A stretch of DNA of 64,000 nt from Candidatus Doudnabacteria bacterium (GCA_003151625.1 PLYC01000007.1:81181-145180), one strand, 5' to 3'; counted from the first letter of the stretch, positions 8,759 to 62,937 are shown. The notes: generated by a model from the sequence alone, not told the origin. Translations and numbers: made by a program.

Positions 8759-8826
8759 TTGACCCATTTATGGGCTGTCCGATATATTTATTAGATTTTC
8801 CAGGAGATTGTTTCGGGATGTCCTTG

Positions 8827-8867: not shown

Positions 8868-9060
8868 TGAGTTTGCGATACCATATATAAATACAAGGAC
8901 CGAACGCAGCTCCACCACGTTCGGCCCTGTCAGGTTTCGGGAGCCCCTCGGTTCCCAAAACAAGCCTTTAAAAGCAAATTAGTTCACCCTGGAGCTATCT
9001 GTTAGCCGCACGGAGCTGGCGGCTATGGATGCACTAATTGGCTTTATGGGCTGTTGTGGT

Positions 9061-15037: not shown

Positions 15038-16102
15038 CTAAAGCATCGTAATCGGTCTGGACTGGGTAATATAGAATTTCCCGTTTTCAAAAGCCCACTC
15101 AATGTCCTGCGGTTTGCCGTAATGTGTTTCTATATTTTTGCAAATTTTGGCAATTTCCACTATTTGCTTGCCGGTAAGTTTTTGTTTGCCTCCGGTTGCC
15201 TTGTCTAATTTCTTATTTCTATTTCCTGTTTTCTCTCTTACTATGGCAAAAGTTTGCTCGGAAACATTTATGTCCAAAATGGAAAAATTGTTTTTGTGAA
15301 CAATATAAGTGTCCGGAGTAATCATGCCGCCGACAATAGCTTCTCCCAAACCAAAACCGGCTTCCACCACCATTTGGTTCTTGTCTTTGGTTACCGGGTG
15401 CACGGTAAAACTAATTCCGGAAACCTCGCTTTGCACCATCTTTTGCACCACAACCGCCACGGAAATCCTTGTGTTTATTCCCCTCCCTTGCTTGTCCGCC
15501 GTAGCTTTAGCGAAGGAGGGACGGGAGGGGTGGGGGGAGGGTGATTTTTTTGTTTTGTAAAACCCTTTCTCAAAAGCATAAAAAATTGCCCTGGGCGTAA
15601 ATAGCGAAGACCAGCATTTTTTTACACTGGCAATAACATTTTTTTCCGTTACATTCAAATAAGTTTCCAGCTCCCCGGCCCAGGAAGCAACCGATGAGTC
15701 CTCGGCCGTGGCGCTAGATCTAACGGCTACAAACTGGTTTATTCCCCTCCTGCCCGAGGAGGGGTTAGGGGAGGTGGGAGATTTTTTAAACAGCTGATGA
15801 TACGCCTCCATAATCTCTTTCTGCAAATCCTCCGGAATAACCTCATCCAAAATCATCCTGCGGATTTCCGCCGAAGCCTTGTCCACAGAATTAACATCCT
15901 TATGGTTGACTTTTTTCAGCAACGCCTCTATATCCGCCTCAATCTCCGTCTCCTCCAAAAATCTGTCAAAAGCACCCGCAACCACTACAAACCCTTGCGG
16001 CACCGGCAATCCCGCCTTAGTCATTTCCCCGAGCGAGGCTCCCTTGCCCCCAGCAATGTCGACATCTTTTTTTGAAATTTGCCCAAAAGTTTTTATGTGC
16101 AT
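15038..16102 (-). CDS. Stand-alone PPDK_N / PEP-synthase-type ATP-grasp (nucleotide-binding) domain protein, with two in-frame REP insertions
   Basis: GGKGASLGEM motif, VAVRSSATAED, VAVVVQKMV and DIEWAFENGKFYITQSRPIT, which are hallmarks of the PEP synthase / PPDK / rifampin-phosphotransferase ATP-binding domain. Extra segments SPTSPNPSSGRRGIN and KKSPSPHPSRPSFAKATADKQGRGINTR coincide with REP DNA. Confidence 0.8.
   Translation of the reverse strand: MHIKTFGQISKKDVDIAGGKGASLGEMTKAGLPVPQGFVVVAGAFDRFLEETEIEADIEALLKKVNHKDVNSVDKASAEIRRMILDEVIPEDLQKEIMEAYHQLFKKSPTSPNPSSGRRGINQFVAVRSSATAEDSSVASWAGELETYLNVTEKNVIASVKKCWSSLFTPRAIFYAFEKGFYKTKKSPSPHPSRPSFAKATADKQGRGINTRISVAVVVQKMVQSEVSGISFTVHPVTKDKNQMVVEAGFGLGEAIVGGMITPDTYIVHKNNFSILDINVSEQTFAIVREKTGNRNKKLDKATGGKQKLTGKQIVEIAKICKNIETHYGKPQDIEWAFENGKFYITQSRPITML
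15476..15544. repeat. REP family 1 variant (composite with the cgctaaagctacgg hairpin) inserted in frame in the PPDK_N gene
   Basis: ttattcccctcccttg...ccgccgtagctttagcgaaggaggg...acgggaggggtggggggagggtga. Confidence 0.75.
15738..15779. repeat. REP family 1 variant inserted in frame in the PPDK_N gene
   Basis: tttattcccctcc-tgcccga-ggaggggttaggggaggtggga. Confidence 0.7.
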
Positions 16103-20085: not shown

Positions 20086-20315
20086 ATTAGGTTATAGCTT
20101 ATGCTATAAATTGCCCATTTTACAGGTTCAGGGCGATTTTTGGCTAACTATAATTCCCTCCTTCGCTAAAGCTACGGAGGGCAAGTGGGTTTTGAGGCTC
20201 TTTAACAATTTGAGGAAAACTTTATTCTCCTTTTGGGGGTACCGACGGCGATTGATTGCTTATGTAATCTGTTGCCATTGGTACCCCGAATTCTGAATTT
20301 CAATAGGAGAAGTTT

Positions 20316-26172: not shown

Positions 26173-26223
26173 GACGCGGAATTAACGCTGAACTACTGCA
26201 GTTGCTGAAAGGGACGCTGAAAC

Positions 26224-26261
26224 ACAAACTCAGCGACCTAATCAGTGTACATATCAGCGAC
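26224..26261. repeat. Family 3 repeat (inverted orientation): cagcgacctaatcagtgtacatatcagcga
   Basis: Reverse complement of the 26807-26847 copy. Together they bracket recX. Confidence 0.65.
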
Positions 26262-26802
26262 CTATCGGCGGAATATGTATAAACAAAGAAGCAAAACTAA
26301 AGAGCCACAAAACGAACTAAAAGCATACGAGTATGCCGTGTTTTTGCTTTCACTGCAGTTGCGTACGGTCGGCGAAGTAAAAGAGAAAATGGAAAAGCGC
26401 GGGTATGCTTCGAATATTATCGCGCATACGATAACCCAACTGACTGACCAGAAATATTTGAACGACGAACGGTACGCCGAAGTTTATTTGAACAATTTAA
26501 AACAATACAAGCATTTGGGCTACTATGGCATAAAAAGAAAGTTTATGGCCAAGAAATTACCGTCGGAAATAATCGAAAAGGTTTTAAGCGAAGGATTGCC
26601 GCTCGAAGACGAACTAAAAATTGCCAAGAGGCTTTTAAAAAAAGAAGGCGTTGTGGCAAAGGAGTCAGACGATGATTCCGTGGTATCGGATAATTCTTAC
26701 AGAACTTATAACAGCGAACAATCCAAAGACAAACAAAAACTCTCCGCCAAACTAAAAAGCCGCGGTTTCCGCGGCGAGATCATTGCACAGTTATTACGCT
26801 GA
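26245..26802 (+). CDS. recX: RecX-family regulatory protein
   Basis: Three-helix repeat pattern ...AYEYAVFLLSLQLRTVGEVKEKMEKRGY...IIAHTITQLTDQKYLNDERYAEVYLNN... Confidence 0.7.
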   Translation: MYISATYRRNMYKQRSKTKEPQNELKAYEYAVFLLSLQLRTVGEVKEKMEKRGYASNIIAHTITQLTDQKYLNDERYAEVYLNNLKQYKHLGYYGIKRKFMAKKLPSEIIEKVLSEGLPLEDELKIAKRLLKKEGVVAKESDDDSVVSDNSYRTYNSEQSKDKQKLSAKLKSRGFRGEIIAQLLR

Positions 26803-26806
26803 ATAA

Positions 26807-26847
26807 TCGCTGATATGTACGCCGATTAGGTCGCTGAATCTTCAGTT
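26807..26847. repeat. Family 3 repeat: tcgctgatatgtacgccgattaggtcgctgaatcttcagtt
   Basis: A near-identical copy lies at 52996-53036. Inverted copies lie at 26224-26261 and ~27262-27296. Confidence 0.7.
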
Positions 26848-27239
26848 CGCGCTTTGTCGTAGATTACGCGTTTGATTTCAAGTCGCTTGGGTGAAAAATT
26901 TATTAGAAAACCGAGTTTATACTCGGAACCCTTCAAATAATTCCAAAAAGTGGCCTCGTCTTGTTTGTTGACAAAAGGCTTCGATTTTAGTTCCAAGACA
27001 ATTTCATTGTTAACAACTTTGTCTGGAACATAAGTACCAACCTTTTTCCCTTCATAATATATGTTTATTCGTTTCTGGCATTCAACCGTTAATCCTCGTT
27101 TTTCAAGAGCAATAGTAAGGGCGTTGTCCACTATTGATTCTTTAAACATTCCTCGAAATTGCTTCCAGACATCAAAACAGGCTCCTCTAATCTCGTAAGA
27201 CTCCTTTTCATATAAAAAATCTTTAACTAACTTTGACAT
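26826..27239 (-). CDS. GxxExxY-family protein (PD-(D/E)xK-like fold)
   Basis: YEIRGACFDVWKQFRGMFKESIVDNALTIALEKRGL...EIVLELKSK...KLGFLINF matches the GxxExxY family pattern. Bracketed by family 3 repeats. Confidence 0.65.
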   Translation of the reverse strand: MSKLVKDFLYEKESYEIRGACFDVWKQFRGMFKESIVDNALTIALEKRGLTVECQKRINIYYEGKKVGTYVPDKVVNNEIVLELKSKPFVNKQDEATFWNYLKGSEYKLGFLINFSPKRLEIKRVIYDKARTEDSAT

Positions 27240-27306
27240 TCCGCTAGAATTTAACTCTTAGCTTCAGCGACAATATCAGCGTACCTATCAGCGACTGTTC
27301 AGCGGC

Positions 27307-49062: not shown

Positions 49063-49128
49063 GCAAATTGGTATTTTTTGAAAATGGCTTAATTTTAAGT
49101 ATTTTCAAAATTTATGGTATAATAAATT

Positions 49129-50038: not shown

Positions 50039-50980
50039 ATGTCCGAAACAAACACACAAAATCCAAATATCGGATCGGAAAAACAATACCGCGTGTACCG
50101 GGGTTTTTCCATAGTATGGCTAAAAACCCTGCGGCTTATGAATTTGGTTTTAAATTTTTTTAGCCTAAAACAGCCCACACAATTTTGGGGAATTGTATAT
50201 GACAGCGTCAGCAAACAGCCGCTAGATCCGGTTATAGTTAAATTAATGTATGTGGATGGTCGTGAAGTGGAAACCTGTGTTACCGATATGGCGGGACGCT
50301 ACGGTTTTTTGGCGCGTCCAGGGAAATTTAAAATTTATGTCCGCAAAACCAATTATTTATTTCCGTCCAGGCTGGTCGCGGGCGATTCGGACGGAATTTA
50401 TGTAAATCTCTATCACGGAGAATTTTTTACCTGTTATCAGGACTACGAGGTTGTTGCGCCAAATATTCCCATGGATCCGGCAGCAACCGACTGGAATCAA
50501 ACGGCCAAGCTGGCGGTTATAAATAATTCCCCCTATTTAAAATATCTTTTAAAAATATTAGTGGCCATAATTTTTTGGTTCGGCTTTATTTTGGAAGCTA
50601 TCTTTATTTTTAAAACCTTTCCTCATATCCCAATAATTTTTTACATTATTGCCGGCGTGTATTTATTATTGCTGGGGTTTTCTACAGTTATGCCGGACGC
50701 CAGGCTATGGGGTAAAGTAAAAACCAATATTGTTTTGGCTCAGGGGGAAAGTTTATATTTAGAGTTACGGGATCGCAATTTGTCCGGGATTTGTTTTGGC
50801 AAAGCCAAAGTAAAAGATGATGGAAAGTTCCTTTTAAGATCCAACAAAGGGGATTATAGTCTTTTTGTCAGCAAAATCATTAAAGGAGGGACCGCACAGT
50901 TTTTGGGAAGTACGAAGGTTCGAATTGGGGGGGAAGGGGTGTTTAACGGAACGATATTGGTTAGTTTCCTAAAACCTTGA
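50039..50980 (+). CDS. Hypothetical membrane protein with carboxypeptidase-regulatory-like N-terminal domain
   Basis: GIVYDSVSKQPLDPVIVKLMYVDGREVETCVTDMAGRYGF, followed by two or three TM helices. Confidence 0.4.
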   Translation: MSETNTQNPNIGSEKQYRVYRGFSIVWLKTLRLMNLVLNFFSLKQPTQFWGIVYDSVSKQPLDPVIVKLMYVDGREVETCVTDMAGRYGFLARPGKFKIYVRKTNYLFPSRLVAGDSDGIYVNLYHGEFFTCYQDYEVVAPNIPMDPAATDWNQTAKLAVINNSPYLKYLLKILVAIIFWFGFILEAIFIFKTFPHIPIIFYIIAGVYLLLLGFSTVMPDARLWGKVKTNIVLAQGESLYLELRDRNLSGICFGKAKVKDDGKFLLRSNKGDYSLFVSKIIKGGTAQFLGSTKVRIGGEGVFNGTILVSFLKP

Positions 50981-50999
50981 AATATGTTATAATATCTGT

Positions 51000-51401
51000 A
51001 TGGAAAATTCTGAGAAAAAAGTTTTAGTCGTGGAAGACGACGTTGACTTACGCAATATATTGGTTGACGGTTTAAGCCTTTCTAACTATAAAATTATGCA
51101 GGCAGGCGACGGAGAACAGGCTGTAGAGCTTATTGTAGATTCCCTGCCGGACTTAATTTTGTTGGATTTACTTTTGCCCAAACTTGATGGTTTTAAAGTA
51201 TTGGAAAGGCTTAGGCAGTATCCGGACAAAAATGTCGCTCAAATTAAAGTTGTGGTTTTAAGCAATCTTTGGAGCGACAAAGATATTTTGCGCGCGCAAG
51301 CCTTAAAAGTGGACGAATACTTTGTAAAGGCAAACACTAACTTAGAGGACGTATTTAACAAAGTAAAAATTATTTTAAGTAATACGCGGAATGCCCAGTA
51401 A
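51000..51401 (+). CDS. Stand-alone response-regulator receiver (CheY-like) protein
   Basis: KKVLVVEDD...DLILLDLLLPKLDG...K. Paralogous to the 56317-56754 gene. Confidence 0.8.
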   Translation: MENSEKKVLVVEDDVDLRNILVDGLSLSNYKIMQAGDGEQAVELIVDSLPDLILLDLLLPKLDGFKVLERLRQYPDKNVAQIKVVVLSNLWSDKDILRAQALKVDEYFVKANTNLEDVFNKVKIILSNTRNAQ

Positions 51402-51466
51402 ATTTTTTGGGGTTCGGATGCTGCCAAATGGTCTTTTTGGCTGACATATGGCCGCCTTTTGTCAGC

Positions 51467-51495
51467 TTGACAAAATTAAGCCAGTTTAGTATTAT
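51467..51495 (+). promoter_or_regulatory. Consensus sigma70 promoter TTGACA-17-TATTAT upstream of secE
   Basis: ttgacaaaattaagccagtttagtattat. It is followed by a ggcc-gcaa-gggcc hairpin plus a U-run (51504-51529) that may be a leader or terminator element. Confidence 0.55.
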
Positions 51496-51634
51496 ATTTC
51501 TATAAAGGCCGCAAGGGCCTTTTAAAAAAGACTACAAAAACTGCAGAAGTTAAACACTACAAATGCCTGCAGAAGAAGGCATTGGGCGGTTTCTGTAGTT
51601 ATCTGTAGATTTGTATTAATATTTTTGTAGATAT

Positions 51635-51811
51635 ATGTTTCAATTTTTTGTAGAAGTTAAAAATGAACTGGCCAAGGTAGTCTGGCCAACCCGCAACGAC
51701 ACTTTTAAGTATACGCTCACTGTTATTATTTTCAGTATAGTCATAGCCGCCCTTTTAGGAGCTTTTGACTATCTTTTGTTTATAATTTTCCAGGCAATAA
51801 TAAATAGATAA
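51635..51811 (+). CDS. secE: Preprotein translocase subunit SecE (58 aa; absent from the supplied ORF track)
   Basis: MFQFFVEVKNELAKVVWPTRNDTFKYTLTVIIFSIVIAALLGAFDYLLFIIFQAIINR. This is the canonical SecE pattern, at the canonical position ahead of nusG. Confidence 0.85.
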   Translation: MFQFFVEVKNELAKVVWPTRNDTFKYTLTVIIFSIVIAALLGAFDYLLFIIFQAIINR

Positions 51812-51872
51812 ACACGGATTTTGGTATTGGTGTTAATTGGTTAACTATTCGTGAATATCAGTTTGGTTTTAT

Positions 51873-52418
51873 ATGCTTCCACCTGGACACATTGCCGCCG
51901 GATTTTTAACAGCCGAAGCTCTTTTACACTTTACCCATCCCAGCTTAATCGCGTCCCAGCAAACCCATTTGCTTTGGTGGGGAATGTTCTTTAGTTTTGC
52001 GCCGGACTTGGATATGTTTTACAGCTTCGCCAGGGAAAAGGCCTTTGAGGTGAGAGATTTTAAAAAGAATAACCACCGGAAGTTTATCAGCCATGCGCCC
52101 TTGCTCTGGATGCTGGGCGGACTCGCAATTTATTTTATTAGCGGTTCCGAATATTTTAAAATTCTTGGTTTGCTGTTATGGCTGTGCAGCTGGAGTCATT
52201 TTATTTTAGACTCTATCGAATACGGGATTATGTGGCTGTGGCCGTTTAGCAAAAGAAGTTGGGCGCTAAAAGATCCCGCGGTAGACAAGGAAAACAATGG
52301 TGAAAACTTTTTTAAGTATTGGTTGAATTTTCTTAAGTCTTACAGTAAAACCTGGACATTTTACGCAGAAATAATTATTTTAATATCATCCTTATTTTTT
52401 CTAATTACTATTCACTAA
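51873..52418 (+). CDS. Inner-membrane metal-dependent hydrolase (YdjM/DUF457-like), inserted between secE and nusG
   Basis: MLPPGHIAAGFL... with His-rich TM helices. Confidence 0.55.
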   Translation: MLPPGHIAAGFLTAEALLHFTHPSLIASQQTHLLWWGMFFSFAPDLDMFYSFAREKAFEVRDFKKNNHRKFISHAPLLWMLGGLAIYFISGSEYFKILGLLLWLCSWSHFILDSIEYGIMWLWPFSKRSWALKDPAVDKENNGENFFKYWLNFLKSYSKTWTFYAEIIILISSLFFLITIH

Positions 52419-52437
52419 GCACTAACCACTAACTTTT

Positions 52438-52983
52438 ATGGCCAGACAGCAAGTTACCGGCGAAAGACATTGGTATGTATTGCATACTTACAGCGGATAC
52501 GAAGATAGCGTTGCTTTTAACCTCAAGCAGCGTATTGAAAGCATGGGTATGCAGGACAAAATTTTTGAAGCTATGGTACCCAAGGAAAAAAAGATTAAGA
52601 TTAAAGACGGCAAACGCACCACTTTTGAGGAAAAGATTTTCCCCGGATATGTTTTAATAGATATGATAGTTACCGATGATTCCTGGTATGTTGTGCGCAA
52701 TACCCCTAACGTTACCGGATTTGTGGGCAGCGGTACCATCCCTTCGCCAATAGACGATGAAGAGCTGGCTTATTTGAAAAAGCGCATGGGCGCGGACGAA
52801 CCAAAGTATAAAGTGGAATTCCAGGCAGGGGATTTGGTTAAAATCCAGGACGGTCCTTTTAAGGAATACGAAGGCAAAGTCGGCAGCTTGGATGAACAGC
52901 ACGGCAAAGTAAAAGTAATGGTCACCATCTTCGGTCGCGAAACCCCGGTTGAATTGGATTTTTTGCAGGTTAAAAAAATGTAG
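52438..52983 (+). CDS. nusG: Transcription termination/antitermination factor NusG
   Basis: NGN domain (WYVLHTYSGYE) plus a KOW domain (GDLVKIQDGPFKEYEGKV). Confidence 0.95.
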   Translation: MARQQVTGERHWYVLHTYSGYEDSVAFNLKQRIESMGMQDKIFEAMVPKEKKIKIKDGKRTTFEEKIFPGYVLIDMIVTDDSWYVVRNTPNVTGFVGSGTIPSPIDDEELAYLKKRMGADEPKYKVEFQAGDLVKIQDGPFKEYEGKVGSLDEQHGKVKVMVTIFGRETPVELDFLQVKKM

Positions 52984-52995
52984 ACCGCTGAATAG

Positions 52996-53036
52996 TCTCT
53001 GATATGTACGCTGATTATGTCGCTGAATCTTCAGTT
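52996..53036. repeat. Family 3 repeat solo copy (ctctgatatgtacgctgattatgtcgctgaatcttcagtt)
   Basis: ~90% identical to 26807-26847. Confidence 0.7.
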
Positions 53037-53110
53037 GTCATCCCGGAATTTTTTGCGCTGATGGATATCACAAGCCGCAAAAATATCCGGGAGCTAGAAA
53101 TAAGTAACTT

Positions 53111-53371
53111 ATGAATAAAACATTTTCCAACATCGCGTATATTTGCGGCTTAATTATAGGCTTGGTACTTGTTTACAATAGCGCACTTGCCCAGCCGAAT
53201 ATTGGTAATGGTATTGGAGAGGTGTTTCAGTCACAATTTGACAGAATTTTTGGGTTTGTCATTGGTGGAATAATGATTTTTGCTTTTTCAATATTTTTGG
53301 TCGGTAGAATTTTGGAATCTTATTATAAGAATAAGAAATCAACCGACCAAGAGCAAAAGGTTGCTAAATAA
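53111..53371 (+). CDS. Small hypothetical membrane protein inserted between nusG and rplK
   Basis: 86 aa with two TM helices. Confidence 0.35.
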   Translation: MNKTFSNIAYICGLIIGLVLVYNSALAQPNIGNGIGEVFQSQFDRIFGFVIGGIMIFAFSIFLVGRILESYYKNKKSTDQEQKVAK

Positions 53372-53492
53372 TTTTATTCCTGCTTCATAACTCGCGCTTC
53401 TCGAATTATGAAATTTGAATAAAATATTAATTTAGAGCCAGTTCATGTCCGGTTTGGATCTTGAATCTTGGTTCTTGGATCTTATTACATTT

Positions 53493-53915
53493 ATGGCTAA
53501 GAAAGTAAAAATAGTATTAAAACTCCAGCTTCCTGCAGGCAAGGCTACCCCGGCACCGCCGGTAGGTACGGCTCTTGGGCCTCACGGCGTGAACATTGCC
53601 GCGTTCGTCAAGGAATTTAACGACAAAACCCAAGGCGGGGATATGCTTATCCCGGTCCTTATGACCATTTTTGAGGACAGGTCTTTTAGTTTTATTCTCA
53701 AAACCCCTCCGGCTTCCAACTTAATTATGAAGGCTATTGGTTTGGCAAAAGGTTCCGCGAATCCTTTAACCACAAAGGTCGGGAAAATAACCGCCAAACA
53801 AATTAAGGAAATCGCGGAAAAGAAAATGCAGGACTTAAACGCCAACGACCTCGCCGCGGCCGAAAACATTATCCGCGGGACATGCAGGAGTATGGGTGTA
53901 GAGGTCATAGATTAA
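53493..53915 (+). CDS. rplK: 50S ribosomal protein L11
   Basis: [35 protein letters not shown]... The annotated ORF start at 53445 is too far upstream. Confidence 0.95.
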
Positions 53916-54022
53916 GTAAAATTAATTAAAAATAAATAAAATTAAGTAAAATTAAGTAAAATTTACTGCGGATAATTTTGGTCAATTTTACTTAATCATG
54001 GTCAATTTTATTTAATAAATTT

Positions 54023-54781
54023 ATGGACATCATCTCGTTACTTGTTATTATTTTTGTCTTCATCGTCCTTCCCGGTTTCCGCGTAATTCAGCAGTACCAA
54101 AAAGGCGCGGTGTTTCGTTTCGGCAAAATCACAGGCATTAAAGAGCCGGGGTTGACCTGGATAATTCCTTATATTGAATGGGTAAGAAAAGTGGACTTAC
54201 GAACCATAACCCTGCCTATTCCGCCCCAGAAAATTATTACTAAAGACAACGTTTCCGTGGATATATCGGCTGTGGCTTATTACCAGATTGTCGATGTTGT
54301 TAAAAGCATTGTCGCCATAGAAAACGTAATGTCGGCAATTAACCAAATTTCGCAAACTACCATCCGCAATATTGTCGGCAAGTTCCAGCTGGATGAAATT
54401 CTTTCCGAGAGAGTCACTATAAACCAGGAAATCCGCGATGTACTTGATACTCACACGGAGCCCTGGGGCGTAATTGTTTCGCTGGTGGAAATCAAAGATA
54501 TTGAACTGCCGGAAAATATGCAACGGGCCATGGCCAAGCAGGCTGAAGCCGAACGCGAAAAGCGCGCGAAAATTATTGCCGCCGAAGGTGAATTTTTATC
54601 GGCTCAAAAATTGGCCGATGCCGCGGACGTAATAGCCATGCACCCGATAGCTTTACAGTTGCGCAACCTCCAGACAATGGCCGAGATTTCCGTGGAAAAG
54701 AATTCCACAATTATCTTCCCGGCGCAGTTTATGAGCACTATTGATGATATTAAGAAGTTTTTGGATAAAGAAAAAATATAA
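54023..54781 (+). CDS. SPFH/band-7 (stomatin/QmcA-like) membrane protein inserted between rplK and rplA
   Basis: N-terminal TM helix, the SPFH core (...GAVFRFGK...) and a C-terminal coiled coil. Confidence 0.75.
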   Translation: MDIISLLVIIFVFIVLPGFRVIQQYQKGAVFRFGKITGIKEPGLTWIIPYIEWVRKVDLRTITLPIPPQKIITKDNVSVDISAVAYYQIVDVVKSIVAIENVMSAINQISQTTIRNIVGKFQLDEILSERVTINQEIRDVLDTHTEPWGVIVSLVEIKDIELPENMQRAMAKQAEAEREKRAKIIAAEGEFLSAQKLADAADVIAMHPIALQLRNLQTMAEISVEKNSTIIFPAQFMSTIDDIKKFLDKEKI

Positions 54782-54859
54782 TTAACGATCACAGATCTGG
54801 CACAGATGTCGCTGATTACCGCGATTAGCGCCATCAGCGAAATCTGCGATTAATATTAT

Positions 54860-55195
54860 ATGAGCCTAAAAAAAGCTTATCTCTACCTGGTTTCCACTAT
54901 TGCTTTAGTCATCACGGTCATTGGCGCGATTATGATAATAAATTTGGGGCTTAAAGCCTGGGTCTTTACCAAGGCAGACCAGAATTATTACCCCTACCCT
55001 TGTACCCAGCCTGTAGCTGACGTGAGCGGCAAATCCGTTCCTTGCGATCAGGCAACTATTGACGCACAAAAGAAACAGGCCCAAGACAATCAAGCCTCCC
55101 AAAGGCAAAACACCGCTGCCCAAGCCCTGGCTATGATAATAGTAGCCACGCCGGTTTGGTGGTTCCACTGGAGACTGGCGAAAAGAGAACAGTAA
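54860..55195 (+). CDS. Small hypothetical membrane protein
   Basis: 111 aa with two TM helices. Confidence 0.35.
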   Translation: MSLKKAYLYLVSTIALVITVIGAIMIINLGLKAWVFTKADQNYYPYPCTQPVADVSGKSVPCDQATIDAQKKQAQDNQASQRQNTAAQALAMIIVATPVWWFHWRLAKREQ

Positions 55196-55208
55196 TTTTG
55201 TATAAAGT

Positions 55209-55418
55209 ATGACTTTAGGAAGAGAAACTTTAAACGGAAGTTTGTTTGAGGAATATAAAACTCGGATAGACGCCGCCCAAACCACAGAGGATTTGGCTGA
55301 TATTATTGCCGGAGTTGAAAATCCTGCCGATCGCGAAAAAGTTATGTACGCGGCGGCGAGGAGGCATAATTTAATGTTGACCAGAAAAGTTGAGGGGATT
55401 TTAAAAAATAATAAATAA
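55209..55418 (+). CDS. Small hypothetical protein
   Basis: 69-aa ORF, in the same orientation and tightly spaced with its neighbours. Confidence 0.3.
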   Translation: MTLGRETLNGSLFEEYKTRIDAAQTTEDLADIIAGVENPADREKVMYAAARRHNLMLTRKVEGILKNNK

Positions 55419-55495
55419 TTTGTGGGAGAACCATCACTGGATTACTTTTTTGTAATACAGTAAGATTCATTCGTACCACGAAAGGAAATCATCAT

Positions 55496-56179
55496 ATGAC
55501 AAAAATTGCCAAGAGAGTTAAAGCCAATAACGAGTTGGTTGATGTAAATAAAGTTTACACACCGGAGGAAGCCATTGAACTCGCCAAAAAGACCGCTAAT
55601 ACCAAATTTGTCGGCTCTTTAGAGGTTCATATTCATACGCTAATAGACGCCAAAAAGACTGACCAGTCTGTTCGCGGCACGGTTAGCCTGCCTCATGGTT
55701 CGGGCAAAACCAAAAAGGTCGCGGCCTTTGTTACCGAATCCAAGGAAAAGGAAGCCAAAGACGCAGGGGCGTTTGTAGTTGGCGGCGAAGAACTTATTAA
55801 AAAGATTAAAGAGACTGAAAAAACCGACTTCGACGTTGCCGTGGCGGAACCTGCCTTAATGCCAAAATTAGCCCAAATAGCCAAGATTTTAGGTACCCGC
55901 GGCCTTATGCCCAACCCCAAAACCGGCACGGTAGGAGCCAACGTAGGAGCTTTAATTAAAGAAATTGCCGGCGGCAAGGTCAACTTTAAAAATGACGACA
56001 GCGGTAATATCCATCAAATAATCGGCAAAAGCAACTTTGACAGTAAAGCGCTTTTGGAAAATTTAAAAGTTCTAAATCAAGCCGTACTGCAAAGCAAGCC
56101 AACTACAGTAAAGGGACAGTTTATTGCATCGATTTCAATAAATTCCACAATGGGTCCGGGAATTAAGGTCAAGTTATAA
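55496..56179 (+). CDS. rplA: 50S ribosomal protein L1
   Basis: Canonical L1 N-terminus MTKIAKRVKANNELVDVNKVYTPEEAIELAK. Confidence 0.95.
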   Translation: MTKIAKRVKANNELVDVNKVYTPEEAIELAKKTANTKFVGSLEVHIHTLIDAKKTDQSVRGTVSLPHGSGKTKKVAAFVTESKEKEAKDAGAFVVGGEELIKKIKETEKTDFDVAVAEPALMPKLAQIAKILGTRGLMPNPKTGTVGANVGALIKEIAGGKVNFKNDDSGNIHQIIGKSNFDSKALLENLKVLNQAVLQSKPTTVKGQFIASISINSTMGPGIKVKL

Positions 56180-56208
56180 AGTTTTTAATGTTTTTAAAGT
56201 TATAAAGT

Positions 56209-56249
56209 AAAAAACACTTCCGATGTGTGTGCAATGGAAGTGTTTTTTT
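56209..56249. terminator. Bidirectional intrinsic terminator after rplA
   Basis: aaaaaacacttcc-gatgtgtgtgcaat-ggaagtgttttttt. Confidence 0.8.
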
Positions 56250-56316
56250 GGTATACTATAAAAGGAATAAATGGGTGTTTGAAACTTTATAACTTTACAA
56301 ACTTTATAATTCCCTT

Positions 56317-56754
56317 ATGTTTGATGAAATGTTTAAAAAAGTTTTAATTATAGAGGATGATTTGGATTTTCGCGATTCCCTGCGAGACAGCTTGTCGGCG
56401 CAAAATTTTGCGGTCAGTACGGCTGATGACGGCGAGCAGGCAATGGAGAGGCTGTTGGCGCATAGGCCCGATGTGGTTATTTTAGATTTGCTGTTGCCCA
56501 AAGTCCACGGGTTTGAAGTATTAAAAAGAATTCGCGCCTATCCGGAAGAAATTTTGGCAAAAACGCCGGTGGTAATTTTGAGCAATCTTTCCAGCCAGAC
56601 CGATGTTGAAAAGGGTCAGGAGCTGGGGGCCAATGCCTATTTTGTTAAAAGCCGGACTAAAAATCAGGAGGTGGTAAATAAGGTTAAAGAAATCCTGTTT
56701 GGCAGTGCGAACGTTAAGACCGAAGAAGTTTGGGATTTTACCAAGGACGCTTAA
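56317..56754 (+). CDS. Stand-alone response-regulator receiver (CheY-like) protein, paralog
   Basis: KKVLIIEDDLDFRDSL...DVVILDLLLPKVHGFEVLKRIR... Confidence 0.8.
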   Translation: MFDEMFKKVLIIEDDLDFRDSLRDSLSAQNFAVSTADDGEQAMERLLAHRPDVVILDLLLPKVHGFEVLKRIRAYPEEILAKTPVVILSNLSSQTDVEKGQELGANAYFVKSRTKNQEVVNKVKEILFGSANVKTEEVWDFTKDA

Positions 56755-56810
56755 AAAAGTTTTTATATAAAAATTGATTCCGTTTAGTTTTTTGCCATCA
56801 TGAACCCCTG

Positions 56811-56851
56811 TAGTTTCCCCTCCCTTAACGGGAGGGGCTAGGGGGAGGGTG
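56811..56851. repeat. REP family 1 copy
   Basis: tagtttcccctcccttaacgggaggggctagggggagggtg. Confidence 0.8.
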
Positions 56852-56960
56852 TAATACGATTTGAATAAAGAAAGGTGATGGGGTTTAGCGCAGTCTAAAC
56901 CCCTTGAGCGTGTAACTAACGGCAGAAAAGCTCTGCGGCCATTGGTTACGAAGAGCGAAA

Positions 56961-57179
56961 TCAGCACCAGACGCGTTGCGGTTTGCGGGTCAGTTCTGGC
57001 GGGGGAGTCGGCAGTGGGAGCCTTTTCCGCAGCCGTGTAAGGCGGGCTGTCAGTACGTTGATTTCCACCTGGAGACCTGGGATTTTTTTCGCGTCCCCTC
57101 CCAGACTTTGCGCCTTGAGACGCTCCTTGTGTAGGTCATCAAGGTTTTGTTGAAGAATCTCTACAACTCTTTTTGTCAT
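56961..57179 (-). CDS. Small hypothetical coiled-coil protein in a REP-flanked GC-rich insert
   Basis: 72 aa, with a strong ribosome-binding site (TAGGAGGGGC 5 nt upstream). Local GC ~55%. Confidence 0.4.
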   Translation of the reverse strand: MTKRVVEILQQNLDDLHKERLKAQSLGGDAKKIPGLQVEINVLTARLTRLRKRLPLPTPPPELTRKPQRVWC

Positions 57180-57233
57180 TGCCCCTCCTATGGGTTATTT
57201 TTGCCGGTGACGCCGGGCAATTATGGTTTATGG

Positions 57234-57419
57234 TTAAACTCCGAAAAAGTTCAGTCCGCCTGAGAAGGCGAAAGAATATTCCGCGAAGTTGTTGGCCGCT
57301 TTTTGGGCGGCGGAAACGTTGACGGACGGCTCAACAGCCGTCACTTGGTCGGAACCCGCAACGGAGTTCTTTTCAAGATTTTGGTCTTGGGCCATAATTG
57401 AATCCTGCCTTGTGGGCAA
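57234..57419 (-). CDS. Small hypothetical protein in a REP-flanked GC-rich insert
   Basis: 61-aa ORF with a weak ribosome-binding site. Confidence 0.25.
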   Translation of the reverse strand: MPTRQDSIMAQDQNLEKNSVAGSDQVTAVEPSVNVSAAQKAANNFAEYSFAFSGGLNFFGV

Positions 57420-57464
57420 GAGACTGGTTTTACCAATCTTTTGCCAGCAAAGCGGTTTGTCCTG

Positions 57465-57505
57465 CAGTTTCCCCTCCCTTGACGGGAGGGGCTAGGGGAG
57501 GGTGA
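57465..57505. repeat. REP family 1 copy (followed by a ccgcc-ttcgctaaagctac-ggcgg hairpin at 57533-57560)
   Basis: cagtttcccctcccttgacgggaggggctaggggagggtga. Confidence 0.8.
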
Positions 57506-57593
57506 TTAAATTTAATTAAGCCTTATTCGTTATCCGCCTTCGCTAAAGCTACGGCGGATTGTTGCACTATTATTTTTTAATTAATGTGCAACA

Positions 57594-57624
57594 AAAAACC
57601 CCGAGCCGCTAGGCTCGGGGTTTA
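57594..57624 (+). terminator. Intrinsic terminator
   Basis: aaaaaacc-ccgagccgctaggctcgg-ggttt. Confidence 0.6.
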
Positions 57625-57929
57625 AAAGTTTTAGATTAAACCAAAACTCTTCCCTTGCCTAGTGGCGACGGAATAATAATGCTAATAATTATGCTGGAAG
57701 AGTAGATTTTTTGCATTTGAGGTATTATAGCAAAGCAAAATTTTTTGTCAAATTTTGTTAAATTAAAAAGAAGCAGCCCACTTGCTTCTATTTTTCACCG
57801 TAGAGGCAAACTTTGTGGGCTGCTGGCGTTTCAAAGGCACCACCTCCTTAATGATGGTTTGGCCGCAAGCTGTTAAGCTATGGCTGTTAAGTTTGCGCGT
57901 TAAGGATCATCTTCTGTTAATTGTGATCC

Positions 57930-58154
57930 TTAGGCATTTATACCGAATTTTGTTGGTTCGGTGTGGTTGCCCGGTAAACACAGGGCAATCCTTCCCCATT
58001 TCCTTGTTAGGCAGATTGTATGTCTGCCGTAAGGTTGGTGTGCAAAGTCGCACCGGATGAGCTCGGTTAGTTCATCCGAGCAGATTACTAACACCACAAC
58101 ACCTTGGGCTTGCAATGCGACAAGAAGTTCATCGCACTCCTTGCTTTGGTTCAT
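57930..58154 (-). pseudogene. Possible remnant of an ABC-transporter ATPase C-terminus (truncated fragment with an intact RBS)
   Basis: GGAGGTGG ribosome-binding site 8 nt upstream. ...ELLVALQAQGVVVLVICSDELTELIRCDF... resembles the conserved C-terminal region of ABC ATPases. No Walker motifs or upstream portion are present. Confidence 0.3.
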
Positions 58155-58445
58155 TATCTGCCACCTCCAAGTAATTTAGAATTCATTCCAAACTACTTGC
58201 AAATAACAAACAAAAAACCTCCCCGGTCGGGAGGCAAGTAAGATTATTTTTGTAAACTTCTATAATCTTATTCTCCTAACCGAAAAGACGGACATCTTAG
58301 TAGTCTTAATCATGCTTGTCTTTACGGTTTTGGAGGAAGAATTGGAATTCATTACAGGAATAGTATACGCTGGCCGGCTTTTTGTCAATCAATAAAAATT
58401 GGTGTAGAATAACTTTACACAATTAAGGTATAGTATACATTATTT

Positions 58446-58982
58446 ATGGCAGAAGAACGCAAGCATTTTAGGCCTTCCTGGGATGATTATTTTATGGCTA
58501 TGGTTAAAATAGTGGCCTCTCGGGGCACTTGCGCCCGCCTTTATGCCGGGTCGGTTTTGGTAAAGGATAACCGAATTATTGCAACGGGTTACAACGGGTC
58601 ACCCCCGGGTTTGCCACATTGTGATGACGTAGGGCATCTGTTAGAAGAAGGTCATTGTGTGCGCACCATTCACGGCGAACATAATTCTCTCCTGCAGGCC
58701 GCCAAGCAGGGAGGTGCCAGTACCGACGGTTCAACCATGTATACAAAATACAGCCCTTGCATTCACTGCGCGAAATATGTTATTGCCGCCGGGGTCAAAA
58801 GGGTTGTGTTGGGAAAAGTTTACCGTAATCCGCAGGCTGTGGATATGCTAAAAGAAGCCGGGGTAAACGTTGAGGTTTATGTGGAGAACTCCAAATGGCA
58901 AAAAGAACTTATGCAAATATTTGCAGAGGAAATTCCGGTTAGGGAAAATGAAGGAGAAGTAAAAATTAAGACAGAAAAATAA
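58446..58982 (+). CDS. dCMP deaminase (ComEB/cytidine-deaminase zinc family)
   Basis: HAEHNSLLQAAKQG (H-A-E) and PCIHCAKYV (PCxxC) zinc ligands. Confidence 0.85.
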   Translation: MAEERKHFRPSWDDYFMAMVKIVASRGTCARLYAGSVLVKDNRIIATGYNGSPPGLPHCDDVGHLLEEGHCVRTIHGEHNSLLQAAKQGGASTDGSTMYTKYSPCIHCAKYVIAAGVKRVVLGKVYRNPQAVDMLKEAGVNVEVYVENSKWQKELMQIFAEEIPVRENEGEVKIKTEK

Positions 58983-58985
58983 AGA

Positions 58986-59537
58986 ATGAATAAATTTGTT
59001 ATTGCGATTGTCGGTCTGGCCGGTGCCGGAAAAACCGAAGCTACTGAGTATATTAAAAAAAAGACATCTCTGCCAAAAATATATTTTGGCCAAGCAATAA
59101 TTGATGAAGTCAAAAGGCGGGGAAAGCCGCTCGGCGAAGCCAACGAAAGAATTGTGCGGGAAGAGTTTAGGGATCGTGATAGTTTGGCCGCAATGGCCAT
59201 TGCCAATTTGCCGGCCATAAAAAAAGCTTTTGAAACTTCATCAGTTATTATAGAAAGCTTGTACAGCTGGGAAGAGTTTTTAAAGGTAAGGGAAGAATTT
59301 GGGGAAAGTTTTAAAGTTTTGGCAGTTTTTAGTTCTTACGAAACCCGGGTAAAGAGAATGGCAAATCGGCCGGTTCGGCCTTTGACCGCCGCGGATTTGG
59401 AATCACGCGACAAATCGCAAATAGAAAACTTGCACCAGGCGGGGCCAATTGCTCGCGCTGATTGGACAATTGTAAATGAGGGGAGCAAGGAAGAGTTATA
59501 TGCGGCTATTGATGTAATTTTGAGCAAGTTGCTTTAA
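58986..59537 (+). CDS. P-loop kinase resembling phage-T4 gp1-type dNMP kinase (paralog 1)
   Basis: Walker A GLAGAGKTEA. The C-terminus (...WTIVNEGSKEELYAAIDVILSKLL) resembles the T4 gp1 C-terminus (...NDGSLEELFSKIKNTLKVL). Embedded in the dNTP cluster. Confidence 0.5.
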   Translation: MNKFVIAIVGLAGAGKTEATEYIKKKTSLPKIYFGQAIIDEVKRRGKPLGEANERIVREEFRDRDSLAAMAIANLPAIKKAFETSSVIIESLYSWEEFLKVREEFGESFKVLAVFSSYETRVKRMANRPVRPLTAADLESRDKSQIENLHQAGPIARADWTIVNEGSKEELYAAIDVILSKLL

Positions 59538-59633
59538 AAGATATTGATAGATATTATTGAAATTAGGATATTATCTGAAATTTCATTAATATCTACCAAT
59601 ATCAATAATATCTATAAATATCCATTTGATTAC

Positions 59634-60092
59634 ATGAAAGCCAGGATTAAAAGATTAACCAAAGACATTGAATTACCCAAATACCATACTTCCGAATCCG
59701 CTGGGTTTGATATTGCCTCATCTGTCGATATTACGGTGGCTCCGGGCGCGGTGGTTAAAATACCCACTGGCCTCGTTATAGCGTCTCCAAAGGGGCATTT
59801 TTTGCTTATAGCCGCCCGTAGCAGCCTGTCTTTTAAAAAGGGTTTGGCAATGGCTAACGGTATTGGTATTGTAGACCCGGACTATGCCGGCCCGAACGAC
59901 GAAATCCATATTATTGTCCACAATTTTACAGACCAGCCGGTAGAAGTTAAAAAAGGCGAACGTCTGGCGCAGGGGCTATTTTTAAAAACTGAACAGGCGC
60001 AGTGGGAAGAGGTTGACCAGCTACACAATGTCGACCGCGGGGGGATAGGGAGCACAGGTGGGTATGCGGTAACTGATAACAATAATAATTAA
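59634..60092 (+). CDS. dut: dUTP pyrophosphatase
   Basis: MKARIKRL...SAGFDI...GIVDPDYAG...RGGFGSTG-like motifs. The start was taken at ATG 59634, not the track's 59544. Confidence 0.9.
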   Translation: MKARIKRLTKDIELPKYHTSESAGFDIASSVDITVAPGAVVKIPTGLVIASPKGHFLLIAARSSLSFKKGLAMANGIGIVDPDYAGPNDEIHIIVHNFTDQPVEVKKGERLAQGLFLKTEQAQWEEVDQLHNVDRGGIGSTGGYAVTDNNNN

Positions 60093-60141
60093 CAACATCA
60101 TCGTATTAAATAAATAATGTGTGGTATAGGAGAACCATTTT

Positions 60142-60681
60142 ATGATTATAGGGCTTGTCGGAGAAAAACTTGCGGGCAAAGATACGGTGGCCAATTATTT
60201 GGTTGACAAACATAATGCCTCGCATTTCAGGTTTGCTCATATTCTGGATGCAATTTTAGAAGAGCTAAATTTGGAAATTTCCAGAAAAAATGAGATAGAT
60301 TTAGGCCTTGGCCTGCGAAAAATTTTTGGCGAACACGTTTTGGTAAACGCGCTGGAGCAAAGAGTTAGGCGGTCTCTGTCCAGTTACCGCGTGGTCAACG
60401 GCATTCGTATGGACGAACTTGATGAAGTAAAATCCTGGGGGGCAAAAATTATTTATATTACGGCTCCATTGGAAATAAGGTTTCCCAGATACCAGCAGCG
60501 GCACGAAAAAATCGATGATGGGGAAATGGATTTGGAACATTTTAAACTCCAGGAGCAGGAAGGTCCGACAGAAATGAAAATTCCGGAATTGGGTCAAACC
60601 GCGGATTTCCGGATAGACAACATTGGAACTATAGAGGAGTTGTATGGGAAAGTGGATGGCATTCTAAAAAAATTAAAATAA
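60142..60681 (+). CDS. P-loop kinase resembling phage-T4 gp1-type dNMP kinase (paralog 2)
   Basis: MIIGLVGEKLAGKDTVANYL (GKDT as in T4 gp1 SGKDT). C-terminus IDNIGTIEELYGKVDGILKKLK. Confidence 0.55.
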   Translation: MIIGLVGEKLAGKDTVANYLVDKHNASHFRFAHILDAILEELNLEISRKNEIDLGLGLRKIFGEHVLVNALEQRVRRSLSSYRVVNGIRMDELDEVKSWGAKIIYITAPLEIRFPRYQQRHEKIDDGEMDLEHFKLQEQEGPTEMKIPELGQTADFRIDNIGTIEELYGKVDGILKKLK

Positions 60682-60718
60682 TTTTGGTATTCTAAAGTGT
60701 GTCCGTCCTCGTGACTTC

Positions 60719-60809
60719 GGCGTCTTTCTGAACCCGAATGCATCTGAGGGTGAAGAATCTCTAAATTTTAATGAGATCCTTCGTCGGCTGCACTCCTCAG
60801 GATGACGCC
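60719..60809. mobile_element. MITE-like element, family 2, second copy, immediately upstream of tmk
   Basis: ggcgtctttctga...gaagaatctctaaattttaatgagatccttc...cggctgcactc...tcaggatgacgcc. Confidence 0.65.
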
Positions 60810-60823
60810 GTAAGTGATTTCTT

Positions 60824-61558
60824 ATGCCATTACTTAAATTCGGAAAATCTAAAAAAAAGGAAAACAAGCGTGGGCGGTTTATTGTTATTGACGGCACCGA
60901 TGGCACCGGCAAGGCAACCCAGACTAATCTTTTAGTAGAAGAATTAAAATTGGGCGGTTACGACGTGGAGATGACAGATTTTCCCCAATATGGGACTAAA
61001 TCTGCTGGCTTGATAGAGGAGTATTTAAACGGCAAGTATGGCCAGGTGGGGCCGGAGGCGGCATCTATTTTTTACGCTATAGACAGGTTTGATGCCAGTT
61101 TTATAATTAAAGGATGGCTGGACGCCGGCAAAATTGTAATTTCAAACCGATACGTTACAGCAAATGCCGGGCATCAGGGCGGGAAAATCGCCGATGATAT
61201 AGACCGATTGAAGTTTTTTAAATGGCTGAATAATCTTGAATACAATATTTTTAACATTCCCAAACCAGACCTAAATATTATTTTACACATTCCCGCGGAA
61301 TTAGCCCAACAGTTGGTGGATAAAAAATCCGCGGCCGAAAGGAAGTACGCCAACGGTAAAAAACGCGATTTGCATGAGGCTGACCTTAAACATTTGCAAG
61401 ACGCGGAAAAGGTATATAAAGAAATTGCCAGGCTTTTCCCCAATACCAAACTGGTGGAGTGCGTTACTGAAAATAAACTCCTGACGCCGCAGGAAGTCCA
61501 TAATAAAGTTTGGGACTTGGTGAGAAGAATTGCTCTTAAAGATATTAAACCGCAATAA
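60824..61558 (+). CDS. tmk: Thymidylate kinase
   Basis: FIVIDGTDGTGKATQ P-loop, DRY-like motif, and LID region. Confidence 0.9.
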   Translation: MPLLKFGKSKKKENKRGRFIVIDGTDGTGKATQTNLLVEELKLGGYDVEMTDFPQYGTKSAGLIEEYLNGKYGQVGPEAASIFYAIDRFDASFIIKGWLDAGKIVISNRYVTANAGHQGGKIADDIDRLKFFKWLNNLEYNIFNIPKPDLNIILHIPAELAQQLVDKKSAAERKYANGKKRDLHEADLKHLQDAEKVYKEIARLFPNTKLVECVTENKLLTPQEVHNKVWDLVRRIALKDIKPQ

Positions 61559-61561
61559 TTT

Positions 61562-62374
61562 ATGAAAGTATACTTGGATCTTTTAGAAAAAATTATGAAA
61601 GACGGTGCGCAGAAGCACGACCGGACGGGGACGGGGACGAAATCGATATTTGGGTATCAGATGCGTTTTAACCTTGTCGAAGGCTTTCCGCTGACGACAA
61701 CCAAGAAGATTCATTTAAAATCAATTATTTACGAATTGCTTTGGTTTTTAAAAGGCGACATCAATGTTAAATGGCTAAACGAGCATGGGGTGACCATTTG
61801 GGACGAATGGGCGGACGCTAATGGGGATTTGGGGCCGGTTTACGGAAAGCAGTGGCGGGCATGGAAAGGATATAATGGCGAAACTTATGACCAAATTTCT
61901 TATGTCGTTGACCAGATAAAAAATAATCCCGATAACCGCAGGATGATAGTTAGCGGCTGGAACGTCGCGGATTTACAATCGCTAATTGCCGGTAAAAAAA
62001 CCGCGCCGCCTCCGTGCCACACAATGTTCCAGTTTTATGTGGCCAACAATAAATTATCATGCCAGCTTTATCAGAGATCGGCCGACACTTTTTTGGGTGT
62101 GCCCTTTAATATTGCCTCTTACGCTTTGCTGACAATGATGATGGCGCAGGTTACCGGCAGGGAACTAGGGGATTTTGTGCACACTTTTGGCGACGTGCAT
62201 ATTTATAACAACCATTTTGATCAGGTTAAACTTCAATTATCGCGAACTCCCAAACCGCTGTCCAAAATGAAAATTAATCCGGAAGTAAAAAATATTTTTG
62301 ATTTTAAATACGAAGATTTTACTTTGGAAGGCTATAATCCGGATCCGGGGATTAAAGCCCCGATAGCAGTGTGA
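61562..62374 (+). CDS. thyA: Thymidylate synthase (ThyA, folate-dependent)
   Basis: [17 protein letters not shown] (catalytic Cys), [20 protein letters not shown] (Asn, giving dUMP specificity), ends IKAPIAV. Confidence 0.95.
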
Positions 62375-62466
62375 TACAAATATACTGATGCATGCGGATA
62401 CCTCTGCCCCAATCTGTATTATCAGTATCATCCGTATTTTAATTCGTATATCAGTATCTTATAACC

Positions 62467-62937
62467 ATGATTGCACTTATTGCCGCGGTGGCCAAAAATA
62501 ATGTAATTGGGAGCAAGAACGATTTGCCCTGGTATTTGCCCGAGGACTTAAAACGTTTTAAACAGCTGACTTTGGGTAAAGTGGTGGTTATGGGCAGAAA
62601 AACTTACGACTCGATCATCAGTCGTTTAAAAAAGCCTTTGCGTGGCCGCACTAACATTGTCATCAGCACCCAAAATTTACAATTGCCGGAAGGAGTGGAA
62701 CTTTATCATAGCGTGGATGACGCACTTGCCGCTCATCAGAACCAGGAAATTTACATAATCGGCGGCGAACAAATTTTTAAGCAAAGCCTGAATGTGGCCG
62801 ACACGTTATATATTACCCACTTAAATAAAGACTATGAAGGCGACGCTTTTTTTCCGAAGATAGATGAAAGTTATTGGCAAATGACAGAAGACGAAAAACA
62901 CGAGGGTTATAGCTTTTTAATTTATAAGAAAAAATAG
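62467..62937 (+). CDS. folA: Dihydrofolate reductase
   Basis: MIALIAAVAKNNVIG...LPW...DLKRFKQLT...VVMGRKTYDSI. Confidence 0.9.
   Translation: MIALIAAVAKNNVIGSKNDLPWYLPEDLKRFKQLTLGKVVVMGRKTYDSIISRLKKPLRGRTNIVISTQNLQLPEGVELYHSVDDALAAHQNQEIYIIGGEQIFKQSLNVADTLYITHLNKDYEGDAFFPKIDESYWQMTEDEKHEGYSFLIYKKK

Follow-up and report, generated by a model that had tools for sequence, protein, structure and literature searches.

We asked whether the secE-nusG-rplK-rplA cluster of a Candidatus Doudnabacteria bacterium, in which five further genes lie between the four core genes and a stand-alone receiver gene lies on either side, was recently invaded or was inherited in this form. The cluster occupies positions 51000-56754 of a 64,000-nt stretch of DNA (GCA_003151625.1 PLYC01000007.1:81181-145180), which we refer to as the window. 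A description made from the DNA letters of the window (the sequence-only reading) had taken the layout for an invasion and had suggested either co-regulation of the membrane proteins with translation and secretion or repeated insertion at repeat-marked hotspots. We instead favour, with a probability of roughly 0.7, a vertically inherited, lineage-specific form of the cluster that has a single transcript, local feedback by ribosomal protein L1 and two slots of fast gene turnover.

All listed open reading frames (ORFs) were confirmed on the plus strand at their coordinates, and the features of the block described below lie on that strand. The four core genes are all present in canonical order: secE (58 aa, 51635-51811; PF00584 68.5 bits, TIGR00964 61.9 bits against a cut-off of 27.55), nusG (181 aa, 52438-52983; TIGR00922 203 against 135.7), rplK, encoding L11 (140 aa from its conserved start, 53493-53915; TIGR01632 180 against 141.85), and rplA, encoding L1 (227 aa, 55496-56179; TIGR01169 273.6 against 216.3). 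They are not contiguous. A gene for a YdjM-family inner-membrane protein (181 aa, 51873-52418; PF04307 66.5 against 29 bits, residues 1-176) occupies the secE-nusG spacer, and p86, a small membrane protein of no family with two hydrophobic segments and a basic C-terminal tail, is encoded between nusG and rplK (53111-53371). Three genes separate rplK from rplA, namely those for a prokaryotic stomatin (SPFH/Band 7; 252 aa with an N-terminal transmembrane segment, 54023-54781; PF01145 148 bits), a small DUF5671 membrane protein (111 aa, 54860-55195; PF18920 49.9 against 28.4) and p69, an orphan ORF of 69 aa and no family (55209-55418). The receivers are RR1 (CheY-like, 133 aa, 51000-51401; PF00072 65.8 bits) and RR2 (145 aa, 56317-56754; PF00072 82.6 bits). 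Family calls exceeded curated cut-offs for both receivers, SecE, YdjM, NusG, L11, the stomatin, DUF5671 and L1, so the gene assignments of the sequence-only reading held, including its short secE and its description of the inserted genes as mostly membrane proteins (four of the five). The first ATG of the L11 ORF is at 53445; we placed the start at 53493 (MAKKVKIV) because the TIGR01632 match begins at ORF residue 19 and relatives align from that methionine.

Scanning one genome per GTDB species with L11 as the anchor gave 80 loci, onto all of which the window proteins were mapped, and the groups compared were the Doudnabacteria clade (n = 26), other Patescibacteria (n = 12) and other bacteria (n = 30). 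Loci L161, L162 and L166 came from look-ups anchored on DUF5671 rather than L11, and an SPFH-anchored metagenome scan returned mainly other phyla, with six close relatives only. The best L11 relatives of the window were Candidatus Doudnabacteria metagenome-assembled genomes (92-74% L11 identity), and members of the NusG cluster also bear Candidatus Doudnabacteria names.

The order receiver-secE-YdjM-nusG-L11-stomatin-DUF5671-L1-receiver was repeated, with patchy losses, in many independent species-level genomes. The part from L11 through stomatin and DUF5671 to L1 was found in seven L11-anchored loci (L004, L008, L014, L023, L024, L025, L032) and again in L161, L162 and L166; in L161 and L162 this part is further preceded by the receiver and secE, with YdjM ahead of nusG, and L166 begins at YdjM. 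The region stays collinear for about 16 kb, with PBP2/FolD at its upstream side and the genes for dCMP deaminase, dUTPase and thymidylate kinase (Tmk) at its downstream side. The same arrangement throughout the clade speaks against a recent arrival of YdjM, the stomatin, DUF5671 or either receiver. YdjM orthologues occupy the same position in 16 genome loci in addition to L161, L162 and L166, and none was found at this position in basal Doudnabacteria loci or in any other group compared. A receiver gene 5' of secE is kept in the YdjM-bearing subclade, and one follows L1 in L003-L009, L015, L016 and L166. DUF5671 extends beyond the clade: DUF5671-like membrane genes, some of them in tandem duplicate, lie between L11 and L1 in distant Patescibacteria (L034, L036, L060, L061, L069), and all 22 DUF5671 phmmer matches in the L11-anchored loci fall inside or beside the L11-L1 spacer. 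The protein has 225 close homologues, PF18920 was recovered in 120 of 120 among the matches listed, and our literature search found no mention of DUF5671.

Placed on a quick neighbour-joining tree of three proteins, the stomatin is next to L11 already at the clade base, a subclade is marked by YdjM together with the upstream FolD-p313-receiver block, and every inserted gene is patchily absent within the clade. YdjM, the stomatin and DUF5671 would thus have been fixed inside the cluster long ago and later lost patchily, with DUF5671 fixed before Doudnabacteria split from some other Patescibacteria, the stomatin at the clade base, and YdjM and the upstream receiver in the subclade. The sequence-only reading had itself said that finding this order throughout the phylum would make it ancestral rather than recently inserted and would lower its novelty; at the level of the clade this is essentially what was observed, and for DUF5671 the placement reaches other Patescibacteria.

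Viewed across bacteria, the interruption is real and unusual, as the sequence-only reading had held, yet it is a property of the lineage. The L11-L1 spacer exceeded 300 nt in 23 of 26 Doudnabacteria-clade loci, 7 of 12 loci from other Patescibacteria and none of the 30 from other bacteria, where the median spacer was 34.5 nt; secE-nusG spacers above 300 nt were confined to the clade, where 18 of 26 loci have one. With the canonical secE-nusG and rplKAJL-rpoBC clusters of Escherichia coli and Firmicutes the block shares its four core genes, their order and their strand, and it differs in the five interleaved genes, the flanking receivers and the lack of rplJ and rplL after rplA. On this last point, tblastn with an L7/L12 query sequence gave no rplJ/rplL after rplA or anywhere in the 64-kb window, and no rplL match after rplA in any Patescibacteria locus but L063; with the same query, rplL was found downstream of rplA in 10 non-Patescibacteria loci and in L063, 1-6 kb away and mostly within 2 kb. 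In L028, the gene after L1 is likewise neither L10 nor L12. Our searches of the literature on secE/nusG/rplK/rplA gene order, on Patescibacteria with SPFH proteins and on Doudnabacteria found nothing describing such an arrangement.

How could such breaks be tolerated? Directly before rplA, at 55422-55479, lies a mimic of the L1-binding site of ribosomal RNA (GUGGGAG-hairpin-UACCAC), followed by a Shine-Dalgarno sequence, GAAAGGAA (to 55487), and the ATG at 55496. Its two strands (7 + 6 nt) are identical to those of the L1 stalk of E. coli 23S rRNA (GGTGGGAGGC...GAAATACCACC; compared in rrlH, GGUGGGAGGC...AAAUACCACC), and it has the predicted L1 stem with an internal loop. The gap to the ATG is 17 nt, and the Shine-Dalgarno sequence abuts the closing helix. 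In 40 of 72 loci a mimic lies no more than 60 nt before rplA, a position that accounts for 41 of the 155 matches to the motif expression in 2.8 Mb; the hairpin between the two strands differs from locus to locus in sequence and length but folds in every case. L1-interacting autoregulatory messenger RNA with the GGGAG/UACCAC internal-loop stem is established in the E. coli rplK leader and the Methanococcus L1 mRNA (Fu et al. 2013, PMC3616713). Such an RNA stands directly before rplA in Cyanobacteria, Actinobacteria, Chloroflexi and one of two Firmicute sites, and precedes rplK in other phyla, the E. coli mode being translational coupling of rplK and rplA (PMC3616713). The site described here shares the stem and its place before rplA, and differs from the published ones in that it is not directly 3' of rplK, three genes intervening. 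No second L1 site was seen before rplK, and no report of an L1-interacting RNA in Patescibacteria was found in the searchable literature.

L1 feedback is therefore probably local at rplA: it would act on an rRNA mimic overlapping the rplA Shine-Dalgarno sequence, whereas in E. coli it acts on rplK and reaches rplA by translational coupling. With a site at rplA itself, adjacency of rplK and rplA would not be required, and genes could sit between them. The junction between nusG and rplK is an operon boundary in model bacteria, and this, together with an L1 site directly before rplA, would explain why the breaks are tolerated.

The signals around the block suggest one transcription unit. A sigma-70-type promoter (TTGACA-17-TATTAT, 11/12 match) lies at 51467-51495, followed by a structured secE leader of about 130 nt (51500-51634; fold z = -4.6), and after rplA comes a putative intrinsic terminator (56209-56249) consisting of a 13-pair stem, a small apical helix and a seven-U run (fold of 56180-56316, z = -4.5). 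A consensus scan revealed no comparable promoter in any spacer between secE and rplA, and the 51467 promoter is thus the likely start of a secE...rplA unit that would be read as one long transcript up to the terminator. The co-expression with secE, nusG and rplKA proposed by the sequence-only reading is plausible on these grounds. Within the unit, the spacers contain hairpin A (CCCGGAATTTTTTGCG...CGCAAAAATATCCGGG; 53041-53092) before the small membrane ORF, a long AT-rich inverted repeat (I3) from rplK to the stomatin gene (53921-54016; -18.8 kcal/mol, z = -3.8), which is a possible attenuator or stability element, and a GC-rich hairpin with CGCTGA/TCAGCG from the stomatin gene to DUF5671 (54787-54851; -26.1 kcal/mol, z = -4.1). 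Spacer hairpins of this kind, which have no U run, would act as processing or stability elements, probably tuning the relative amounts of the products. The last 30-50 nt before the rplK and secE starts (53455-53490 and 51575-51632) consist of short G-poor tandem repeats (TCTTGG..., CTGTAG...) and not of a Shine-Dalgarno sequence, and relatives have such repeats at the same positions, each with its own unit.

Several points weigh against an inherited block with one transcript and L1 feedback at rplA. In L001, the closest species-level relative, L11 and L1 are adjacent and RR2 is absent. Since gains and losses were placed on a quick three-protein tree, the patchy presence of the inserted genes could partly reflect recombination between relatives rather than loss. 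The case for co-transcription is built solely from consensus scans and folds, and transcription might end at the long AT-rich hairpin that follows rplK, in which event rplA would need a promoter of its own, and none was found. Binding of L1 to the element at 55422-55479 is, moreover, a prediction from sequence.

A different account of the same linkage is that the stomatin, DUF5671 and YdjM proteins cooperate with the ribosome or the translocon, for instance by controlling the quality of membrane proteins inserted during translation, and that selection for co-expression holds them in place. E. coli QmcA, a stomatin relative, has been implicated in membrane-protein quality control, and the preponderance of membrane proteins among the inserted genes is in line with this idea. 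The linkage has persisted in more than 25 species-level genomes and has survived local rearrangement, the stomatin having been relocated nearby in some lineages (nusG-SPFH-L11 in L027; L1-SPFH-dCMP deaminase in L047, L084 and L086). Matches to a PDB stomatin (E = 2e-60), to PH stomatin 3bk6 (E = 6e-55) and to QmcA (E = 2e-37) identify the SPFH protein as a true stomatin. Its orthologues at this position share 76-89% identity throughout the clade, a level of conservation equal to that of the ribosomal proteins (L11 is 74-92% identical among clade relatives). Yet each of the three genes has been lost independently in many lineages, including L001, and close stomatin homologues (78-80% identity) sit in unrelated contexts (L081, L082, L083, L085). 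The stomatin and DUF5671 also occur each without the other and are therefore not an obligate pair, and in a region that is collinear over 16 kb, inheritance alone predicts linkage. Inheritance with local shuffling and loss fits the pattern better than obligate functional coupling, and we regard functional coupling as an unlikely explanation, if one with real points in its favour.

The partner that would be expected of a stomatin is also missing. Stomatins usually share an operon with NfeD, as do 229 of 353 SPFH1 genes (Hinderhofer et al. 2009, PMC2636767). In our control set, NfeD1b lay directly upstream in 27 of 42 non-Patescibacteria stomatin loci, its identity confirmed by Pfam, whereas 35 NfeD queries found none in the window or in any of the 80 L11-anchored loci, Doudnabacteria included, and Pfam found none among the stomatin's neighbours. 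Compared with the stomatin-NfeD operon (PMC2636767; PH1511/PH1510; E. coli QmcA-YbbJ), the locus has in common a bona fide stomatin orthologue, which here lacks NfeD and is neighboured by L11 and DUF5671.

Rapid turnover is confined to two spacers, nusG-rplK and DUF5671-rplA. Among relatives, the nusG-rplK spacer is empty or holds unrelated small soluble ORFs, small hydrophobic ORFs or opposite-strand genes (L017, L020), and the small hydrophobic ORFs in the slot of p86 are not its homologues. p86 is a real, fast-evolving gene; in a search of 5.8 billion proteins its sole homologue was P0148 (75% amino acid identity; ratio of non-synonymous to synonymous substitution rates, dN/dS, 0.19), which sits in a different genomic context on another contig. 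The only match to p69 in the same 5.8 billion proteins was p69 itself, and phmmer against all ORFs of the 80 loci found no homologue of either protein. L167 is 88% identical to the window in DNA over DUF5671 and 86% over L1, and at the p69 position it has an 84-aa ORF that shows no similarity to p69; L166 has no ORF there.

Part of this diversity may be divergence rather than replacement. Hairpin A precedes a small spacer ORF in the window, L002, L008, L009 and L015, and a second structure, hairpin B, lies downstream in each; with the ORFs bracketed in this manner, some of them may be highly diverged positional orthologues. All-against-all BLASTP of the spacer ORFs, run uncorrected for composition in a tiny database, gave weak similarities of 26-28% over hydrophobic segments (E about 1e-3), which either diverged orthology or shared composition could produce.

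Hairpin B (53384-53412; flanks 53378-53425), in the rplK 5' region, is an 11-bp covarying stem with an invariant 7-nt loop, CGCUUCU. Ninety per cent of alignment cells are paired, compensatory changes affect 7 of the 11 pairs, and none of 500 shuffles was as good. All covariance-model matches at E <= 0.01 in the 1.39 Mb searched fell in the nusG-rplK spacer. Hairpin B is followed by a conserved TTTAGAATAAAAT and occurs in L002-L016, in L022, in L166 and possibly in L060; it is absent from L001, and it is also present in relatives that have no spacer ORF. A different structured element stands directly before the rplK ATG in L001, L005, L009, L012, L025 and L166, and a third element is found in L017-L020. 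Rfam, searched at E <= 5 over 50900-58500, returned nothing at hairpin B or at the L1 site, and at gathering thresholds it returned three tRNAs only in the whole window. Our guess is that hairpin B is a candidate cis-regulatory RNA for rplK. Two other identities were set aside: a sigma-70 promoter, for which no -35 was seen by eye at the proper spacing and against which the covariation, pointing to RNA, also argues; and an L1 or L11 rRNA mimic, to which there is no sense-strand resemblance. The complement of the loop, AGAAGCG, may resemble the loop of 23S H43.

The spacers and the hairpins can be joined in a bolder proposal, in which the two spacers are dedicated turnover sites bounded by conserved hairpins (A, B and the L1 site), small ORFs are swapped among close strains by an unrecognised site-directed mechanism, and hairpin B is a new ribosomal-protein leader controlling rplK independently of L1. 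A test for integron-like or mobile-cassette features found no recombinase among the genes of the block, and the slot boundaries in the window, L161, L162 and L165-L167 showed AT-rich tandem repeats only and no duplications. We hold this combined proposal to be speculative and quite improbable.

That the block as a whole arose by recent insertion at repeat-marked hotspots draws on the same two spacers: the orphan p69 is replaced by an unrelated ORF between flanks about 87% identical, the ORFs after nusG differ among relatives, with opposite-strand genes in two, and the only homologue of p86 lies elsewhere in another genome. Dispersed repeats do exist, and the repeat after nusG noted in the sequence-only reading is genuine. 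This family 3 repeat (52986-53036) consists of four CGCTGA units that recur every 12 nt and is 92% identical to a copy at 26797-26847; the array pattern is matched 10 times in the window, where chance would give 0.15. GC-rich hairpins are likewise shared with relatives' leaders. Arrays also stand after nusG in relatives, where the hexamer differs from genome to genome (CACAGA, CTACAGAA, CTACGGAA), both in spacers that hold an ORF and in spacers that do not; being positionally conserved in this way, the array is not an insertion scar. Orthologues of YdjM, the stomatin, DUF5671 and the two receivers keep their positions throughout the clade, so that synteny already refutes recent insertion for these five. 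Base composition is smooth across the block, with no anomaly, and no target-site duplications or recombinase genes were seen. What stands of the hotspot idea is the exchange of small ORFs between close relatives in the two spacers, and for the whole block we judge it very improbable. A chimeric contig, or another artefact of assembly or binning, has nothing specific to recommend it beyond the origin of the sequence in an uncultured-organism assembly and can practically be dismissed, given the same order in many independent assemblies from different studies and the smooth composition.

With the inherited cluster as the preferred reading, the flanking genes can be described more briefly. The two receivers are paralogous, as the sequence-only reading had recognised (48% identity over 128 aa, E = 1e-42), and neither has an output domain or anything else beyond the receiver. 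The acidic pocket, the phospho-acceptor Asp and the Ser/Thr and Lys positions are present by eye. They thus share domain and conserved residues with CheY-like single-domain response regulators and differ in that no histidine kinase or chemotaxis genes adjoin RR1 or RR2; their neighbours are p313 (which has a weak CarboxypepD_reg match), secE, L1 and small ORFs. RR1 has an exact extended -10 box, TGTTATAAT, at 50985-50993, 6 nt before its ATG, and RR2 an extended -10-like box, TGGTATACT, at 56249-56257. Another exact extended -10 (TGnTATAAT) occurs at 49115-49123. As the boxes of FolD and RR1 end just 5-6 nt before the ATG, leaderless mRNAs are suggested for both, and RR1 probably has its own leaderless transcript.

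Elsewhere in the window, CGCTGA arrays at 26203-26275, 26797-26847 and 27264-27293, in alternating orientation, flank recX (26245-26802) and a PD-(D/E)XK_3 nuclease gene (26826-27239, minus strand). Placed with their 12-nt spacing right after stop codons, the arrays may resemble a Rho-utilisation site. A GC-rich hairpin repeat, TTTCCCCTCCC...GGGGAGGG, occurs at 56809-56852, 57463-57506, 8825-8868 and 15736-15779, and a second, CCGCCTTCGCTAAAGCTACGGCGG, at 57534-57557, 20157-20180 and 15496-15519. Near-identical copies lie within the rplK or rplA leaders of L166 and of L003, L012, L162 and L167, so that these repeats behave like small mobile elements of the repetitive extragenic palindromic (REP) or miniature inverted-repeat transposable element (MITE) type.

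Three small minus-strand ORFs (56961-57179, 57234-57419 and 57930-58154) lie in the 1.7 kb that separates RR2 from the dCMP deaminase gene and that is otherwise empty; two of them have GGAGG ribosome-binding sites, and none has a Pfam match. The first and third are singleton clusters, and the first and second are bracketed by the GC-rich hairpin repeat. A candidate small RNA or leader is also predicted there on the minus strand (about 57588-57716); its promoter, TTGACA-16-TATAAT with a TG (57751-57724), is perfect, and a strong intrinsic terminator stands at 57623-57596. The element has syntenic counterparts in L009 (13895-14085) and L015 (5350-5535), with 73-75% conservation, and shows internal CUCUUCC/GGAAGAG complementarity; all Rfam matches to it were below threshold. 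Further downstream, a deoxynucleotide block (58446-62937) encodes dCMP deaminase, two P-loop kinases, dUTPase, thymidylate kinase, ThyA and DHFR. Synteny of the dCMP deaminase, kinases, dUTPase and thymidylate kinase is clade-wide, and L161 and L162 carry dCTP deaminase and ThyX instead.

These findings alter no major concept. They show that one of the most conserved gene clusters of bacteria has a stable, clade-wide alternative layout in a lineage of the Candidate Phyla Radiation (CPR), and they offer a concrete reason why the layout may be tolerated, namely an L1 feedback site at rplA. For the annotation of Doudnabacteria they supply useful positional markers, such as a secE missed by gene callers and the true start of L11. 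They also flag testable items: a stomatin without NfeD, a widespread DUF5671 protein gene wedged between those of two ribosomal stalk-base proteins in Patescibacteria, and a covarying hairpin before rplK.

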